A DNA stretch of 64,000 nt from Nitrosopumilus sp. (GCA_965207445.1 CBDBLX010000002.1:2167849-2231848), one strand, 5' to 3'; counted from the stretch's first letter, positions 3,932 to 16,921 are shown. A program made the numbers and translations. Notes: generated from the letters alone by a model not told the origin.

Positions 3932-4946
3932 TACTGGATATTTCCTTGCGCTTCATATATGATATTATTCCATTATTTATCTCATTGAACAGTGAGATGT
4001 TAATCGAGTTGTCACTACTATTATGGCGGCCATGACTACCATCAGCATTACCAATACCATTACCAATACCATTACCAATACCATTACCAATACCATTACC
4101 ATGATTACCAATACCAGAACCTGCATTACCAGACGTATAACCAAGTGCACTTCCAACCTGCACAGCAGAAGCACCTGCTAGTATGAACTCTACTGCATCC
4201 TCCCATGTAGACACTCCACCACACCCAATTATTGGAACATCATATTTAACTGCAATCTCAAATACACATCGCAGTGCAACAGGTTTGATTGGAGTCCCCG
4301 ACAATCCTCCAAACGTGTGACTCAAAATAGGAATCTGCATCTCTGCATTTATTGCAATGGCACGTATTGTGTTTATAGCAGTAATAGCATCTACACCTGC
4401 ATCAATAGACGCACGTACAGTATCAAGATAATTAGACGATCCCAATCCGACCTTTACTATCACGGGAGTCTTAGGAGATGCTCTTTTTGTGGCACGAACT
4501 ATCTGAGCTACTAATTCAGGATCATCACCCACCTCAAGTCCTACCTTTTCAACATGAGGACAAGACATGTTAAGCTCATATGCAGTTATTGCACAATCAG
4601 AGAACTCAGATATCATGTCCTCAAATTCTGTAGGAGTAGATCCTACTAAACTCACAATGATTGGTACATCATTGTGACTAGTTTTGATCATGGATGCAAA
4701 GTTTCGTGCTCCAGGATTTGACAAGCCTACTGCATTTATCCATCCATTTGATTCAAGGGGTATGACTGTTGGATTCGGATACCCTTGCCACGGCTCACGA
4801 CTCAAAGACTTTGATACTACAGCACCTGCACCTGCATTGTATAATCGCTCAAACACATCCAAGGAAATTCCCAATATTCCAGATGCAAGCATGGTAGGTC
4901 TCTTTAGTTTTATTGGTCCTATTGTAGTTTTTAAAATATCATCCAC
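3903..4946 (-). CDS. pyrD: Dihydroorotate dehydrogenase family 1B catalytic subunit, with a (GNGI)n insertion near the C-terminus
   Basis: ASG, NAVGLSNPG, ELNMSCPH, GGLSG and GCGGV motifs; probable GTG start at 4946. Confidence 0.93.
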   Translation of the reverse strand: MDDILKTTIGPIKLKRPTMLASGILGISLDVFERLYNAGAGAVVSKSLSREPWQGYPNPTVIPLESNGWINAVGLSNPGARNFASMIKTSHNDVPIIVSLVGSTPTEFEDMISEFSDCAITAYELNMSCPHVEKVGLEVGDDPELVAQIVRATKRASPKTPVIVKVGLGSSNYLDTVRASIDAGVDAITAINTIRAIAINAEMQIPILSHTFGGLSGTPIKPVALRCVFEIAVKYDVPIIGCGGVSTWEDAVEFILAGASAVQVGSALGYTSGNAGSGIGNHGNGIGNGIGNGIGNGIGNADGSHGRHNSSDNSINISLFNEINNGIISYMKRKEISSIGEMVGIVR

Positions 4947-5172
4947 AATTATATGAAAAAGTTGTTGTGATATAATAGTAATTAATTTTGTAACTATTTT
5001 GCTTTTTAAAGTGCACGCATGTAACCGTTCAACCTCCTTTTTGCTCCCGTGCACAACATCTGCACCCGTGTGCATTTAACACAGTCAAAAATAGTCGGCG
5101 ATCGGTCTTTTGAGTTTGTACAGACAAACTTTTGTGAAATAGATTGGTATAAATTTTTGGTATGGTGTCATC

Positions 5173-5253
5173 GTAACCGTTCAACCCTTTCCCAAATTTA
5201 GGCACAAATTCACCGCCTAACGTCTGGCGCAGGTACGGGGGTTGAACGGTTAC
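5173..5253. mobile_element. 81-bp MITE with GTAACCGTTCAACC TIRs
   Basis: Perfect 14-bp TIRs; flanking 9-bp duplication GGTGTCATC (5164-5172, 5254-5262); related ends at 5021 and 38143-38198. Confidence 0.85.
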
Positions 5254-5262
5254 GGTGTCATC

Positions 5263-5864
5263 GTAACTGTTCGTTATTTGACATTCCAATCGTGGTGGAC
5301 GGATACGCCGCATACAACAAATTCAAAACCAAACAGCGCTACCACTGGGCGCATGTTTTGCGCGATGCCGAACTGCTGGCAGACCATGCATGGCGGCAAT
5401 CTCGTAGAATTGCACAGAAAACTCCAGCACATATTTCATGAGGCCAAACAGCTACTACCAGACACCACAGATCAATAACAACAACAACTGCAAGACAACT
5501 GGATAGATGTCGTCATGGCAATTGCAGGCACATATACAGAACTAGGAACACTCGTTTGGTGGCAAACCACATAATGCGACGCTAGACCTGTTTGCATTTG
5601 TCAAATATCCGGTCATACCACCTACCAACAACAAATCCGAACGAACACTGCGGTGGCGCGTCGTGATTCACAAAAAGATTCGTCAGATGTTTCAGTGCAA
5701 CAGGAATGGAAGTTTATGGCATATTGATGACACTGTATGATCAGGGCAAGGATCTTGTAAAGAATATCCATGACACCATCATGGCAAGCTAAATCATTCA
5801 CCAAACTTCATCGCATAGCGGCAGATGTGTGTTGAGGTGTACAGGTAGGGGGTTTAACTGTTAC
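5263..5864 (+). pseudogene. IS66-family transposase remnant with GTAAC...GTTAC ends
   Basis: Frameshifted fragments read HWAHVLRDAE and FVKYPVIPPTNNKSERTLRWRVVIHKKIRQMF, typical IS66 TnpC motifs. Confidence 0.75.
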
Positions 5865-5872
5865 CTTCATCT

Positions 5873-6965
5873 TAGCATGTTGCATAATTCGTAAATTTAT
5901 ACTCCTCTGGAGTCGTGGCCATGTGATCTGAGCCGCGCAACCTACGTTACACGATTCGAAGCCATTTAAATGCCCTGCGAAAGGCATTACCACATACAAG
6001 CCAACCCTCATGTAAAATACAAACTTTTATTTTAAAACCAACTTGAATTCTTACCCAAACCTTTAAAAGTCTCATATGTTTACATATCATATGGATATAG
6101 AATCATTCAAGAATGAATTAATCAGTATACGCGATGCACTTGACACCACAAAACCACTTACAGATGAAGAAGCAGCAGACCTTGCTGAACGCATTGCAAA
6201 TTTATAGTGGTCTAAATGAATGTTACCGAAGCCAAAACAGAATTAGAGTATTATTTAAATGAATTAAAAAAATTCTGGGAGTTATCTTATAGGTGGGTCA
6301 TCTCCCAACCCAAAAATAGTGGAATATCTCAATCGTATTATTGAACTAATTGATGAATGGGGTGTGGTGTTATTCCAATGATTGTAAAGTATGTCGATCT
6401 AACATCTTTATGTATAATAACAAGTATTCTTATACTAAGCTATACAGATACCGAACTTTATGAAATATATGCATTTGTAAGCATCTCAACTTTGGGTGCA
6501 TGGGCATTTTGCATGGTTATGACAGGTGCACCTGCTCGTTGGGGTTCAATAATGTCAAATAAATTGGCCTTGGTTGGTTTAACAATTTATAATATTTTAC
6601 TCGCCTTTATTAGTATTGGTGGAATCATACCTGTTTTAGGAATGCAATTTTATGATATTATCCCACTAGTTATAGGAGCAAATATTAGCGTGTTTCGTGT
6701 ACTAGTGCCAATGTGTGTATTATTAGTAAATAAAATACATAAGACAAAGATATTAAATATTTAAGATTTTATAAACGCCACAAGCAGGCCGTGCTTCCAA
6801 GCCTACAAAGTGTACGCGCAAAACATGGTGTGGTAGACGCCTTGGTATTTTATGAGTACATACGCATATCTCCATATTCGTATTTAATCTATACAATGAA
6901 GCCTGCTGAATCATATTGCAACGGTGTCGTCCTACAGGATGCGCATCGAGTTATGCAACACGCTA
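5873..6965. mobile_element. Transposase-less passenger cassette (MIC-like) with 19-bp TIRs
   Basis: TAGCATGTTGCATAATTCG ... CGAGTTATGCAACACGCTA; 8-bp duplication CTTCATCT at 5865-5872 and 6966-6973; left ~100 bp recurs at 55485-55587. Confidence 0.85.
6378..6764 (+). CDS. Small multi-pass membrane protein (about 4 TM), passenger of the cassette
   Basis: Four hydrophobic segments in the 6357-6764 ORF; start placed at MIVKYV. Confidence 0.6.
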   Translation: MIVKYVDLTSLCIITSILILSYTDTELYEIYAFVSISTLGAWAFCMVMTGAPARWGSIMSNKLALVGLTIYNILLAFISIGGIIPVLGMQFYDIIPLVIGANISVFRVLVPMCVLLVNKIHKTKILNI

Positions 6966-7012
6966 CTTCATCTTTTATAAAATTTTATATATATTTTTGA
7001 CTACCGATAAGT

Positions 7013-7747
7013 ATGAATAAAAAAGCTAGTAAGTCATGCAAGGCACTTTTAAAAAAGAGACCAAAAGAGGTGCAGGCAATAATTGTGTTTGGCTCACAAG
7101 CACGTGGGGATGAGCGTCTAGGTAGTGACCTTGATATTCTTTGTATCGTGGAAAATAAGTTAGGGTATGAAAAATGGATAAAATTGCATGGTCATATTGC
7201 AAGAATGTTATCATGTGATGGCGGTATAGATGATGCAACCACATTTATTGATGGATGGAAAGAAGTACAAAACATGTGTAATATTTATGATGCAGAGCAT
7301 TATAATATAGTCCGCGAAGGTATTGTAATTTATGGTGATATAAATAAACTACAAATTAACAAAAAAATTGATTATGCAAAAAGTGTAAAATATTGGCTTG
7401 AGCAAGCCGATAAAAATATATCAAAATTCAAATCAGAAATAAAACACAAACAACCTTCGTGGGGCATGTATTCCTATGGATGTATTGGAGATATACTGCG
7501 TGCAGTTATGCTTGCTAAACACATACAAATTCAATTTACACGAAATATCGTAGAATATGCTCATGCGCTAAATCTCCCAGATATTGATAAAATTATAAAA
7601 TTTGCAGATTGGTACACCTCTTGCAGATTGCAAAAAAATTATCAAGATACAACATTGTTAAACAAAACCCAAATTACAAAATTAACACACCAAATTCATA
7701 AGTGGGGGCACAATCAAGTACTAGATGACACCCGTATCACCGTTTGA
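7013..7747 (+). CDS. Minimal nucleotidyltransferase (MNT) with a probable C-terminal HEPN-like helical domain
   Basis: VFGSQARGD..SDLD Pol-beta-type motif; VREGIVIY then WLEQADKNI resembling a HEPN start. Confidence 0.75.
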   Translation: MNKKASKSCKALLKKRPKEVQAIIVFGSQARGDERLGSDLDILCIVENKLGYEKWIKLHGHIARMLSCDGGIDDATTFIDGWKEVQNMCNIYDAEHYNIVREGIVIYGDINKLQINKKIDYAKSVKYWLEQADKNISKFKSEIKHKQPSWGMYSYGCIGDILRAVMLAKHIQIQFTRNIVEYAHALNLPDIDKIIKFADWYTSCRLQKNYQDTTLLNKTQITKLTHQIHKWGHNQVLDDTRITV

Positions 7748-8175
7748 GAATATAGACACATTACACACATGCGAAGATCTTGCTAACGTGTATCATCAGA
7801 TGAATAGTTGGTAATTTGAATACAAGCACCTATCAGATATTTGTCAAAAAAACAAAAGAAAAAATCAAAGAAAAAATGCAACGGCTCGGGTGCACAAACA
7901 TCCCAAACTAGTAACTATTTTACTTTTTGTAGTGCATATATAAAGTAAAAGATCATTTTATAATATCTTGTCAATTGGTATTGTGCAACCACCACTTGCA
8001 ATAATCGCAATCATCTTTGAGACATGCATTTTTGCATTTCGTGTATTTTTGTCACGAGTTTTTGAGCAGCACAACTATGCTCACTCCTGCAAATAATTGA
8101 CACTTGTAATTCCAGTCACACTGATCGCTTAAATCATGTTTGCGCGATGAACCAATATCGTTCCGGTCTATATTT

Positions 8176-8324
8176 GTGTGAACCAATCTCTATGATTGAT
8201 ATAATCATTTAAAAATAACTCCTAGTCAAATGAATTGTATGTACGATACTCGATATGCAGATAGGGATATGACCAAATACGAGTATGGCGTTTTATTATT
8301 GCGGCCAAAGAGCTTGCTTCACAC
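8176..8324 (+). repeat. About 148-bp GTGTGAACCAA-MITE copy
   Basis: TIRs and conserved interior CCTAG(C/T)CAAATG...GACCAAATAC. Confidence 0.9.
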
Positions 8325-8464
8325 AATAATCCCCTTTATATTTGATCAGTATTCTTTCATCTACTATTGCAATTACTCCAAATATAGACACACCTGCAAC
8401 TATTAAGATCATTGCCATAAACAAAGGCTTCATGCTTTCTTATTGCAGATTTTGAATTTACCTA

Positions 8465-8710
8465 TTATTCAAGATATTTCAAACAGTGATGATATACATG
8501 GTCACTATCTTTGATATAATCTAAATTTCCTATTATTGGACTTTTACTTGCTCTTTCTCCAAACCATTTTTCACAAAACCATTGTTCATTGATCTTTTGT
8601 GGGTCTGTTGTGTGTGGGTCTATTTGTAGTTCTATTACTTCTACTACCAATATGGCCAATAGTGTACATAGTATACCTACTAGAATAGACGTGTTGGTTT
8701 GTGGTTTCAT
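8465..8710 (-). CDS. Small membrane-anchored hypothetical protein
   Basis: 81-aa ORF with N-terminal TM helix and two Cys. Confidence 0.6.
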   Translation of the reverse strand: MKPQTNTSILVGILCTLLAILVVEVIELQIDPHTTDPQKINEQWFCEKWFGERASKSPIIGNLDYIKDSDHVYHHCLKYLE

Positions 8711-9353
8711 GTATATTGTTTATCGAGTTTTGCTTTAAACATATAGCGACGAGCATAAGTCCTTGTACACCAATTTTACACGATTTTATGCCTGAAAAGA
8801 TCATATGTAAAAATATTATATTTTTAAAAACGTTACATCTATTTTTAATATGAATAGAAACATTTCAGATGTGCATGCAACAAGTACCGTATGTGTAACA
8901 TACTAAAGAAATTAGTACTTTATACTTTACTGGTTTGTAATTGACAAATATACCGCGTTACCTCTGAAATCATTTTAGGGGTCTTTCTGTGTGAGAATTG
9001 ATATGTTACATAGATATATTAATTTAAATATGAAAAAAATATTATCGTAAAACCTAAAAATCTAAATTATTTTATTTATTCATACTCAAATTTTAAATGA
9101 ATATATCAGTCAGGGAGGTTGGTTCACACCCATATTTTATTCATCCTTAATGATAGATGAATGCGTTTTGATTTAACACCCCTAACGCTAAATTATTCAA
9201 GTGTTTGATCAAATTTTTCAAACTAAAATTATCATAGTATATAATCATAAAAATTTAAGTGTCTACTTCAAAAAGCAAAATAGTTACTTAATTTTTGAGA
9301 ATATTGCAAGTGTGCAAAATCACTAGTTAAACTATGTAAACATCAAATACAAC

Positions 9354-9502
9354 ATGTGAATCAATCTCCACGATTGACATGATCATTCGAAAATAAATCC
9401 TAGCCAAATGCATCACATGTACGATACTCAATATGCAAATAGAGATGTGACCAAATACAAGTATGCGATTTCATTATTGCATTCAAAGAGCTTGGTTCAC
9501 AC
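9354..9502 (+). repeat. About 148-bp GTGTGAACCAA-MITE copy
   Basis: Same TIR and interior as the other copies. Confidence 0.9.
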
Positions 9503-9546
9503 CTTAATTTTAACAGATTTTTATCGGGGCATGACAACGGCATCGA

Positions 9547-9712
9547 CTAGTGTATTTTGAACGTGTCTTTGAGTTTTTCTTTTACTGTGGGAATGTCAGA
9601 TAAGAGATCTTTCTCAACCCTGTCGAACATTTTGTAGTATCTTGTAGTTTTTCTGGAAACATTATCACCTTCCATGGAGTCATCTTTGATCTCTCTGATT
9701 TTTTGTAGGAAG
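9547..9712 (-). pseudogene. 3' remnant of the membrane-anchored paralog family (see 13754 and 16312)
   Basis: Hand translation FLQKIREIKDDSMEGDNVSRKTTRYYKMFDRVEKDLLSDIPTVKEKLKDTFKIH* aligns with the C-terminus of the 16312-16921 gene. Confidence 0.8.
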
Positions 9713-9849
9713 ATAATAGAATCAATTTTAATTTAAATATGTAATCTTTTTTTAAATAAATTCACATTATTTAAGTCCATATACAAATTTATTAATTCAA
9801 AAAAGCGATACAATATCAACCCCAATAGTATCTTTTTAAAGGACTCAAA

Positions 9850-12650: not shown

Positions 12651-13656
12651 GGTAATACGTAACTATTTGGACCTTGAAAAAGTTCATATTGATAAATAAT
12701 TTCATGCCTAGGTAGTGCCTAACAACCATCCAAAAATCTTAGCAAATAATTTGACAAAAAGCAAGGCATTTTTTGTCAAGAAAAGATGGGCAGGAAGGCG
12801 AGTTTGTCCAAAATGCAATCACAGGTCACTAAATCGCCTGAGTTCTAGATATCAATGTAAGCGGTGTAAATACAAGTTTGGTGATTTTACAAACACCTAC
12901 CTTGGACAACTTCGCATACCACTGGATACAGTTTCACATCGTGCATATCTGTTTGTTCTTGGAGTTCCTGCATACAGAATAAGATTTTATGAAGATGTTA
13001 GTCTTCGTACCATTGAGCAAACATTCATGTTATTCAGACAGGCCATATATGACACATCTCCAAAACTCATCTTTGATGGCGAAGTAGAATTGGATGAGGC
13101 AATGTTTGGAGGTCATCGAAAAGGAAAACGCGGTTGGGGAGCTGCAGGAAAAACACTCGTCTTTGGTATACATTCTAGAAATGGATAAATTTGTACATTT
13201 ATCGTGCCTAATCGAAAGCAAAAAACACTCAGACCCATAATTGAAAAGCATACTATGTCAGGGTCATTGTACTATACAGATGAACATACTGCATACGGCA
13301 CACTTGATGAGCTTGGTACACATCAAGTGGTGACTCATAGTAAGGATGAATATGTTAGAGATGATGTACACATAAACAGTGTTGAAGGTTTTTGGAGTTT
13401 TGCCAAAAATTTTCTGTATGCATACCGTGGTGTTCCAAAAACATATTTCCCCTTATATCTCAAGTATATCGAGTTTAGATACAACCACAGAGATGAAAAT
13501 TTGTTTGAGCTCTTGACAGATATTCTGGTTAAAGATATTTCAAAGATAGAGTCAAGTATTCAAGTCATTCCAGACCCATTATATAAAAGATCATTTAATG
13601 GGTAATTAAATGTTCAAATTATCCAAAAAATCAGGTCCAGATAGTTACGTATTACC
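12651..13656 (+). mobile_element. IS1595-family insertion sequence
   Basis: TIR GGTAATACGTAACTATTTGGACCT / AGGTCCAGATAGTTACGTATTACC; 8-bp TSD TTACAAAA (12643-12650, 13657-13664). Confidence 0.93.
12715..13605 (+). pseudogene. IS1595 transposase with one in-frame TAA (13186-13188)
   Basis: Zn ribbon CPKC..CKRC, VELDEAMFGG, YTDE, HINSVEGFWS, EFRYN; the two ORF pieces are in the same frame. Confidence 0.9.
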
Positions 13657-16189: not shown

Positions 16190-16315
16190 GTGGCGGATGA
16201 CATACCAAGTACTGTTAAGAAACGCAGACCGTTCATAGGAAGCAGGAAGGGAATCGCTAGCACGACCAACGTAGAGTCACCAGCTACTTCTAGGCCTAAA
16301 AAAAGTTCAGGCTAG
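16190..16315 (+). CDS. 41-aa basic micro-ORF convergent with the membrane gene
   Basis: GTG-ADDIPSTVKKRRPFIGSRKGIASTTNVESPATSRPKKSSG*; TTTATTA about 25 nt upstream; stop overlaps the partner stop in CTAG. Confidence 0.4.
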   Translation: MADDIPSTVKKRRPFIGSRKGIASTTNVESPATSRPKKSSG

Positions 16316-16921
16316 CCTATTTTAAACTCCTCTTCAAGTTTTTCTTTTACTTTGGGGATGTCCGATAAGAGTTCTTATTCGATCTTGCTAAGACTTTCGT
16401 AATACCGCGTGGTTTTTTTGGAGACGTCCTCTTCCTCCCCGGCGTCATCCTCGATCTCCCTAATTTTTCTTAAGTGTCTGTTGTGATCTTTGATTTTCTG
16501 AAAAGTATCCTGAACGGGTTGTTGTATCTCTGGTGGCAGAAAGTTTATTTTGCCCGAAAAAACTAAACTGTCGTAAAAATCATAGTTAAACACCCTGTTC
16601 ATAAAGTAAGCTTCTCTGTCGTTTGGAAGATCTACTTTTTTAAGGTCGCCTGTGTGCTTTCTCTCGTTTAATTCATCTAATGCATCGACTAGTTCCGTGT
16701 GTAAGTTTTTTGTTGCACGAGAGCGTTCATTCCTAGAATCTTGCCATTTTTTCCAGAAATATATCCCCGGAGGCATTCCTAGGGAGATTATAGTGACTAT
16801 GGAGGCCCACTTGCCCAAGAACTCTTTTTCCCACATGTATTCCCATCTGAGAAGACACCAAAATGATGACCAAAGCCACCCCGATGACAATCAACAGAAC
16901 AGAGTTTTTTGAAATACTCAT
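16312..16921 (-). pseudogene. Paralog of 13754-14379 with an early frameshift and a premature TAA (16375-16377)
   Basis: MSISKNSVLLIVIGVALVIILVS joins WEYMWEKEFLGKW...; frame continues past TAA as ELLSDIPKVKEKLEEEFKIG*. Confidence 0.8.

Follow-up and report, generated by a model that had tools for sequence, protein, structure and literature searches.

Leftover insertion-sequence ends as the probable boundaries of a non-autonomous composite transposon between pyrD and nop5 in a Nitrosopumilus genome

How does a block of accessory DNA that holds no intact transposase come to lie, framed by inverted ends and a target duplication, between two conserved genes? The question is raised by a 4.3-kb block between pyrD and nop5 of a Nitrosopumilus sp., contained in a 64,000-nucleotide stretch of DNA (the window; GCA_965207445.1 CBDBLX010000002.1:2167849-2231848, or G000:C2:2167849-2231848) that belongs to a 2.6-Mb genome in two contigs, C1 and C2; bare positions are window coordinates. 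An initial annotation, made from the sequence alone, had proposed a modular cassette platform assembled from three terminal inverted repeat systems that moved or grew as a unit. The follow-up analysis indicates that the block is probably a non-autonomous composite transposon, in which a stray end of the insertion sequence (IS) named IS-A and an internally deleted IS-A copy delivered an MNT-HEPN gene, and that it later collected further elements; on this reading an IS bloom produced it incidentally, and it is no dedicated platform.

The outer boundaries carry this reading. Inverted GTAACTATTTTGCTTTTT ends are located at 4990 (+) and 9287 (-) and are flanked by an exact 8-bp duplication, as originally described. 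The frame of the block is composed of the following features:

4982..4989, no strand: left copy of the target duplication, TTAATTTT, immediately upstream of the pyrD TATA-like box
4990..5020, plus strand: stray 31-bp IS-A end of the transposase-downstream side, 96% to IS-A positions 1-27, with 42 copies on C2
7013..7747, plus strand: intact fused MNT-HEPN gene, 244 aa, with Pfam Polbeta, NTP_transf_2 and HEPN matches, all above cut-off
7911..8175, plus strand: left part of an internally deleted IS-A (mini-IS-A), with IS-A positions 1-46 joined to 1533-1755
9134..9287, plus strand: right part of the mini-IS-A, IS-A positions 1752-1905, ending in the promoter-side end
9288..9295, no strand: right copy of the target duplication, TTAATTTT

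The 8/8 outer duplication has the length made by intact IS-A copies (8 bp), and among the 54 IS-A-family ends on C2 the ends at 4990 and 9287 are the sole perfect flank partners of each other; the proposed check of whether the TTAATTTT flank recurs at other ends of the family returned only 2/54, namely these two. An 8/8 flank match occurs in 0/675 distant end pairs, and the per-flank chance of a match is 2.6e-4 by a generous estimate; the outer match is more than chance. The extra internal end reported at 7911 is present, and its left flank (CCAAACTA) is unmatched in the genome, where the best candidate reaches 6/8. Specifically, 7911-9287 is one IS-A minus positions 47-1532, split by a GTGTG-ended unit described below, and the stump at 4990-5020 is a second IS-A end in direct orientation to it. 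The mini-IS-A once paired 7911 with 9287, yet the flank of 9287 now matches that of 4990, so that a later event probably used 4990 and 9287. Moreover, the MNT-HEPN gene, correctly recognized as intact in the initial annotation, abuts 7911 with no other end between them, which suggests that it was carried by the 4990/9287 event. The block contains only IS fragments and no intact transposase, and both of its outer flanks are IS-derived, one being the stump and the other the deleted IS-A. Element-derived DNA accounts for 2059/4298 bp and low-copy DNA, MNT-HEPN included, for 2314 bp; the segment 6974-7910 is single-copy DNA, and the block as a whole is present once in the genome.

The proposed course of events begins at a donor site, where two IS-A copies would have flanked the MNT-HEPN gene. 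IS-A transposase made elsewhere would then have brought the two outermost ends together and integrated them, with all that lay between, at TTAATTTT, a target between the divergent promoters of pyrD and nop5, with no loss of either promoter half. IS-E-type insertions (IS-E being another resident element) and adjacent deletions may have trimmed the first IS-A copy to 31 bp; the inner GTGTG, 81-bp and TAGC insertions may have come before or after the integration. The claim of movement or growth as a unit is supported for the outer ends, which probably acted in one integration event, and not for the inner parts, which are separate insertions.

The target site was compared in a set of 150 congener genomes, in which nop5 is matched in 140/150, and the spacer itself at 18 congener loci. 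In 16/18 of them pyrD and nop5 lie head to head with 82-101 bp between the aligned starts, and 2/18 are rearranged. Both halves of the congener-type spacer are kept in the genome under study, one on each side of the insertion, and the promoter half is conserved in congeners. Relative to these loci, the insertion extends about 530 bp past 9295, and the accessory region is therefore larger than the bounded block. A sigma-70 promoter scan gave 34 against 26.7, near chance, with a model unsuited to archaea.

Five element families contribute to the block, rather than the three inverted-repeat systems first counted: three belong to the IS66 family (IS-A, IS-C, IS-E), one is IS5-like (IS-B), and one is IS630; the IS630 end at 8742-8962 and a second end of the family of the 81-bp miniature inverted-repeat transposable element (MITE), at 5021-5172, had been missed. 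Open-frame copies of every end family are present elsewhere in the genome, consistent with the suggestion that the units are non-autonomous and may be mobilized by transposases acting in trans, and the genome-wide search that had been advised found both autonomous-type partners with open frames and other end pairs with different cargo. IS-A (GTAACTATTTT ends, 1905 bp, 8-bp duplications) has a 495-aa frame with an IS66 domain, open in the intact copies at C2:164677 and C2:1838782. IS-E (GTAACAGTT ends, 2127-2150 bp, IS66 domain, 9-bp duplications) has four full-length copies on C2 with PF03050 matches, three of them having 557-562-aa frames, and has its end motif and duplication length in common with the 81-bp MITE. 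IS-C (GTGTGAACCAA ends, 1840-2197 bp, IS66 domain, 8-bp duplications) is intact at C2:652719 and C2:1264815, and a 149-bp MITE is its derivative. IS-B, with TAGC ends and 1771-1957 bp, is IS5-like, its transposase matching Pfam DDE_Tnp_1_5 and NCBIfam IS5, and full copies of the 1.69-kb IS630-family element have PF13358 matches. The PF03050 matches of the three IS66 partners are above the Pfam cut-off, and the NCBIfam NF033517 matches fall short of that model's own cut-off (127 and 173 vs 180 bits). IS66-family ends typically start with GTAA and give 8-bp duplications; IS-A fits this pattern, IS-E gives 9 bp, and IS-C ends start with GTGTG and give 8 bp. Transposase copies of IS-C (C2:652719-654915) and of IS-B (C2:16646-18602) vary by tandem 7-codon repeats near the N-terminus.

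These families account for the inner parts of the block and for the DNA just beyond it, as listed here:

5021..5172, plus strand: end fragment of a GTAACCGTTCAACC-type element, of the end family of the 81-bp MITE, 83% to C2:1601831-1602003
5173..5253, no strand: 81-bp MITE of IS-E, inserted in the 5021 fragment, with the two copies of its duplication at 5164-5172 and 5254-5262
5263..5864, plus strand: terminal 600 bp of IS-E, comprising a remnant of the dead transposase and the right end, 89% to positions 1532-2127 of the copy at C2:333082
5873..6965, plus strand: TAGC cargo unit, 1093 bp; duplication CTTCATCT, 8/8, at 5865-5872 and 6966-6973
6091..6207, plus strand: cargo open reading frame (ORF) 1, 38 aa, with a paralogous 39-aa ORF at about C2:1368234
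6216..6381, plus strand: cargo ORF2 of about 54 aa, with a frameshift at an A-run of the assembly; intact paralog of about 55 aa
6357..6764, plus strand: cargo ORF3, which encodes a hydrophobic membrane protein (128-135 aa, start probably at 6378) with a 48% paralog at C2:1368493
8176..9129, no strand: GTGTG cargo unit, 954 bp, inside the mini-IS-A; duplication at 8168-8175 and 9130-9137 (7/8)
8176..8324, plus strand: 149-bp MITE of IS-C, with 86 other copies on C2, best 85%
8465..8710, minus strand: orphan 81-aa ORF with hydrophobic N-terminus
8742..8962, plus strand: first 220 bp of the 1.69-kb IS630-family element
9011..9129, minus strand: promoter-side IS-C end, 119 bp, with 17 copies on C2, best 96.7%
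9296..9820, no strand: DNA beyond the outer ends, missing from congeners, with a second IS-C MITE at 9355-9502 and a third TTAATTTT at 9504

Three insertions are shown by this architecture. The mini-IS-A received the GTGTG unit, an older end fragment was entered by the 81-bp MITE, and the TAGC unit landed beside the IS-E fragment. The 81-bp MITE, found with its 9-bp duplication as described, has 147 other copies on C2 (best 98.8%), and its empty site is seen in the C2:1601831 copy of the host fragment. For the host fragment at 5021 no partner end with a matching flank was found (best 6/9). The dead IS66 transposase of the initial annotation is IS66-derived, and what is left of it is only the last 600 bp of the 2.13-kb IS-E; a duplication of its own around 5263-5864 was considered and rejected, as the flanks have only TCATC(T) in common. 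The TAGC cassette stands in length and duplication, whereas its cargo is a three-ORF module and not a single membrane gene. In order, it contains IS-B positions 1-105, 800 bp of cargo, IS-B 177-298 and IS-B 1705-1771, and is an IS5-like shell in which the cargo replaces 71 bp. Similarly, the GTGTG cassette is real and its duplication imperfect, as described, while its 81-aa gene is unproven, since no relative of the ORF was found outside this genome; a second short hydrophobic ORF follows and extends into the MITE. The unit is bounded by two like, promoter-side IS-C ends that face inward, and its uninterrupted single site is seen in seven other IS-A copies (7/15 left-side, 9 right-side matches); it is a smaller composite, consisting of a whole MITE and a like IS-C end facing it. 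Beyond the outer ends, a 155-bp piece within 9296-9820 is 73% like window 16312-16465.

The three ORFs of the TAGC cargo have paralogs in the same order at C2:1368234-1368885, which argues that they are real genes. Together with C2:1366518-1368885, window 6091-6764 forms a lineage-specific module of two peptides and a membrane protein, of which a more distant third set exists; this layout may resemble that of peptide-plus-immunity operons. Contigs of two runs across 6091-6764 have one gap, which may be the ORF2 frameshift. The membrane ORF3 has no match in the 150 congeners and none in Pfam, NCBIfam or PADLOC. ESM Atlas matches for the 135-aa and 81-aa ORFs, all sub-0.9, were not used.

The block has counterparts elsewhere on C2. 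Inward-facing ends of four families (IS-A, IS-B, IS-C, IS-E) within 15 kb, with at least 300 bp of low-copy DNA between them, were tested for duplications, and 8/278 pairs have perfect ones, plus one at 7/8: IS-A 1/7, IS-B 2/8, IS-C 3/77 (plus the 7/8 unit of the window) and IS-E 2/186. Distant pairs lead to an expectation of 0.04 in all (<0.1 with a pseudocount for zero classes). Two of the eight pairs lie in this block. Some of the cargo is poor, one unit being without a clear ORF and one holding a gene fragment. The cleanest unit on C2 is C2:178385-181001, in which two inverted 149-bp MITEs with a perfect 8-bp duplication surround an intact 750-aa PsbP/CFI-box-CTERM surface-protein gene; the genes flanking it are about 40 bp apart in 5/5 congeners. 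Another GTGTG composite (C2:413551-416440) carries a paralogous MNT and HEPN pair, synteny giving no guide there because the gene upstream of hisG differs in 5/5 congeners, and the unit at C2:2255053-2257328 carries a split AAA_14/DUF4143 gene. Among the IS-C units, 3/4 are bounded by two inward promoter-side ends. These inverted like-end units cannot arise by recombination between copies, which argues that composite transposition does occur in this genome. An 8-kb unit with a 114-bp inverted repeat (C2:1800012-1808027) has flanks that match imperfectly.

Further units were recorded alongside. C2:1228854-1230289 has GTATCAACTCAGG ends, of the family of the C2:1800012 unit, and its 8-bp duplication is perfect; within it lies a broken SDH-type protease gene. 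C2:43250-46685, a 3.4-kb unit with IS-E-type ends and a perfect 9-bp duplication, sits within the final codons of a RadB-like gene and contains 273-aa and 107-aa ORFs with no Pfam matches. C2 has a single copy of a ~760-bp unit made of an IS-B end and cargo (C2:32392-33637), of which C1 has four in tandem (C1:46337-49669), all inside the same 8-bp duplication, a copy-number variation between apparent haplotypes. A family-agnostic scan for ends, blind to mismatches in the first 12 bp, returned mostly palindromic artefacts of inverted IS copies, which were removed.

Outside this genome, the cleanest composite found is a 7645-bp unit of the congener G139 (C4:294293-301937), whose inverted ends are 122 bp long and whose 9-bp duplication is perfect; it holds a DUF4377-serpin gene, nested IS and a third internal end. 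The empty site of this unit is documented by the congener G012, in which the alignment runs unbroken over it (85.6% over 1446 bp); of the five congeners tested, three others can also be aligned there, at about 75%. IS66 blooms occur in about a dozen congeners, and IS-rich Nitrosopumilus genomes are mentioned elsewhere (PMC13343696); more composite cases are therefore likely. In 18 regions with close IS66 pairs, from seven congener genomes, full IS66 copies mostly retain their own duplications. One of these genomes (G146:C1:935972-937705) has a full IS66 copy with a 208-bp extension that opens with a second IS end and a duplication around the outer ends, that is, an end-spacer-end-IS layout in miniature. 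Long arrays with a period of 66-73 bp, probably CRISPR arrays, lie beside IS66 copies at L068:4312-8322 (G156) and L070:5499-10494 (G151), the latter being interrupted by an IS.

Several results weigh against delivery of the block as one composite. At pyrD-nop5 the congeners did not reveal an empty site with just one TTAATTTT, and the 8-mer is absent from their spacers at this locus on inspection by eye; such a site is not demonstrable there because the congeners are too diverged (best nop5 identity 70-71% over long matches). The exact 22-nt junction-side pattern is found at 0 loci in the JGI metagenomes, a scan of the same metagenomes for MNT-HEPN gave 56 stretches, none confirmed, and no 4989-to-9296 joint occurs among the 15/16 joints listed from contigs of the same sample. 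Neither a donor site nor a second copy of the block is present in the genome, and TTAATTTT is frequent (312 sites on both strands of C2, with a recurrence at 9504). The 18 congener regions include no full-copy pair with a common outer duplication among the matches listed, and yielded one cargo unit of another end type and the one 208-bp extension. Lastly, the two IS-A pieces are direct repeats, so that integration of a circle by recombination would give the same map. This last point leads to a rather unlikely, still tangible, alternative, according to which a lone IS-A or mini-IS-A occupied TTAATTTT and the cargo was added later without ever moving as one transposon, either through a circle with an IS-A end and MNT-HEPN that integrated by homologous recombination or through insertion of a second IS-A and other elements, later trimmed by deletions. 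In its favour, 4990 and 7911 are direct repeats of one IS end, the end-cargo-end-IS layout recurs at C2:32392, where one versus four cargo copies fit recombination of direct copies, and several inner insertions demonstrably entered pre-existing element DNA. The nested version, however, requires a vehicle for MNT-HEPN, yet 6974-7910 is single-copy and offers no such flanking ends, while in the recombination version the cargo would still have arrived between IS ends; in either case true composite transposition was available, as the inverted-end units elsewhere in the genome need it. The preferred delivery by 4990 and 9287 is also favoured by the polymorphism of IS families between C1 and C2. An outer match due to chance or to mis-assembly of repeats is barely credible. 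The block is 46% repeat, its duplicated 8-mer is AT-rich and common, and no contig among the pieces listed (2253 further pieces) spans the whole block or bridges 9287; nevertheless, the counts from distant end pairs speak against coincidence, chance would have to account for each of three nested duplications (outer, TAGC, GTGTG), and junctions 4990, 5978, 6777, 7911, 8324 and 8742 are bridged by contigs assembled separately from four runs of one sample, at about single-copy depth as for the flanking genes.

The originally proposed platform, selected as such and stabilized by a toxin-antitoxin-like MNT-HEPN gene, is highly improbable. It could be sustained by the intactness of MNT-HEPN amid decayed neighbours, by a weak MntA match below cut-off (38.7 vs 60 bits), by the presence of a paralogous MNT/HEPN pair in the second composite at C2:413551-416440, and by the fused MNT-HEPN toxin-antitoxin described on mobile elements in Shewanella, FhepTA (PMC13000451). 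Like FhepTA as presented there, the protein has an N-terminal MNT domain with the GS-x10-DxD motif fused to HEPN, in mobile DNA; G27, S28, D39 and D41 are invariant in 22 aligned rows (the query and 21/33 matches, its own near-copies and short or partial matches being left out). Conversely, the R-phi-xxx-H RNase motif and the Tyr next to it are retained in FhepTA (PMC13000451) and missing here and in the family: R-x4-H is absent from the protein and is not conserved across the 22 aligned members. PADLOC matches span the MNT domain only, the matches from a PDB search were weak and confined to MNT (best E 0.008), and the gene has four paralogous matches in the genome and matches in 7/150 congeners. 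Integron-like platforms rely on a site-specific recombinase and a shared cassette recombination site. No recombinase is found among the block ORFs, a common cassette site and a further copy of the block are lacking, and each unit has its own ends and duplication, the parts being separate insertions of unrelated IS families. Furthermore, a repeat content at only the 82nd percentile of 4.3-kb windows on C2 is unexceptional for the genome, and other composites carry unrelated cargo with no MNT-HEPN-like gene.

The genome as a whole is rich in repeats. Repeated DNA makes up 27% of C2 by self-BLAST, and C1 and C2 combined have 46 IS66-domain matches. C1 aligns colinearly with the initial 120 kb of C2, with identity mostly 96-100%, and looks like a second haplotype. 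Whole-IS insertions differ between them, including IS-B at C2:16646, with a clean single-copy empty site, which shows recent movement within the population, not present-day activity. A 20.8-kb segment (C2:61076-81864) is replaced on C1 (79585-79667) by one 81-bp MITE, in what looks like a MITE-linked deletion. The window also contains a 1006-bp IS1595-family element (12651-13656), whose duplication is 8 bp long, whose transposase is split and whose copy at C2:20866 is missing from C1, and, within pyrD (4037-4122), a 12-bp tandem repeat giving a Gly-Asn-Gly-Ile-rich insert near the C-terminus. In the sample contigs, the left duplication has a T>C variant at 4988 in 3/4 runs, and the joints 8169-9132 and 5013-9257 were set aside, as other IS-A copies could account for both.

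Comparable arrangements are known from bacteria. The mosaics of TIMEs (miniature elements with inverted repeats, derived from Tn3) of Pseudomonas, as described in PMC4133298, resemble the block in lacking an internal transposase, in the miniature elements or ends that flank captured DNA, in the outer duplication and in their similarity to IS-driven composite transposons. TIMEs differ in being Tn3-derived, with 38-bp ends, 5-6-bp duplications and movement shown by a trap plasmid (PMC4133298), whereas the block has IS66-family and IS5-like ends, 8-9-bp duplications, an archaeal host and nested families, and its movement is inferred. In Acinetobacter, two MITE copies likewise bracket accessory genes in class 1 integrons and other regions, which in these accounts hold integrons and resistance genes between MITEs identical across strains (PMC10969869, PMC6382973). 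Here, instead, the cargo is lineage-specific (small peptides, membrane protein, MNT-HEPN, surface protein), and the copies on either side have diverged and frequently differ in type, such as a whole MITE and an IS end. The mobile insertion cassette MIC231 uses two ends of one IS4-family element. The TAGC unit is like the MIC231/IS231 cassettes of Bacillus cereus (cited in PMC2266710), as IS ends enclose passenger DNA with no transposase in a single shell, here with the cargo close to one end, whereas the outer block, with three IS-A ends (two alike, one opposite), has a composite layout. Finally, in the classical composites Tn5 and Tn10 the outermost IS ends also bound the unit, and inverted pairs of like ends recur in the GTGTG units; there, as summarized in PMC10969869 and PMC2266710, at least one flanking IS contains a transposase, which none of the flanking pieces does here. 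The mechanism is thus already known in bacteria (TIMEs, MITE composites, MIC231), and what is new is the archaeal host. According to a 2019 survey of mobile elements in Thaumarchaeota, composite DNA transposons that carry passenger genes belong to the classes undetected in archaea, and the main text of that survey makes no mention of IS66 in Thaumarchaeota (PMC6563490). A literature search, with subscription papers and supplements outside its scope, found no later report of natural archaeal composite transposons. A 1994 title cited elsewhere reportedly concerns constructed ones. For Halobacterium, "possibly a composite transposon" is mentioned (PMC7193027).

The block itself is an untidy example, with cleaner cases elsewhere in the genome. 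On a more general level, the prospect is evenly balanced that IS-rich members of the genus make routine use of residual IS ends and MITEs, frequently as two like ends facing inward, as a trans-driven gene shuttle that delivers genes for surface proteins, serpins, small peptides and MNT-HEPN to conserved intergenic sites. Serpins have been discussed as a trait of sponge symbionts (PMC7848895). The pairing of like ends suggests that single-ORF IS66-family transposases can pair two like ends, and the units are ready substrates for an archaeal transposon assay. At least eight cargo pairs with perfect duplications, together with the G139 serpin unit, provide a concrete route for the movement of accessory genes in these archaea. 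If the shuttle proves true, these units would represent natural archaeal composite transposons, reported as undetected in 2019, and a means by which host-interaction genes may spread among ammonia-oxidising archaea.

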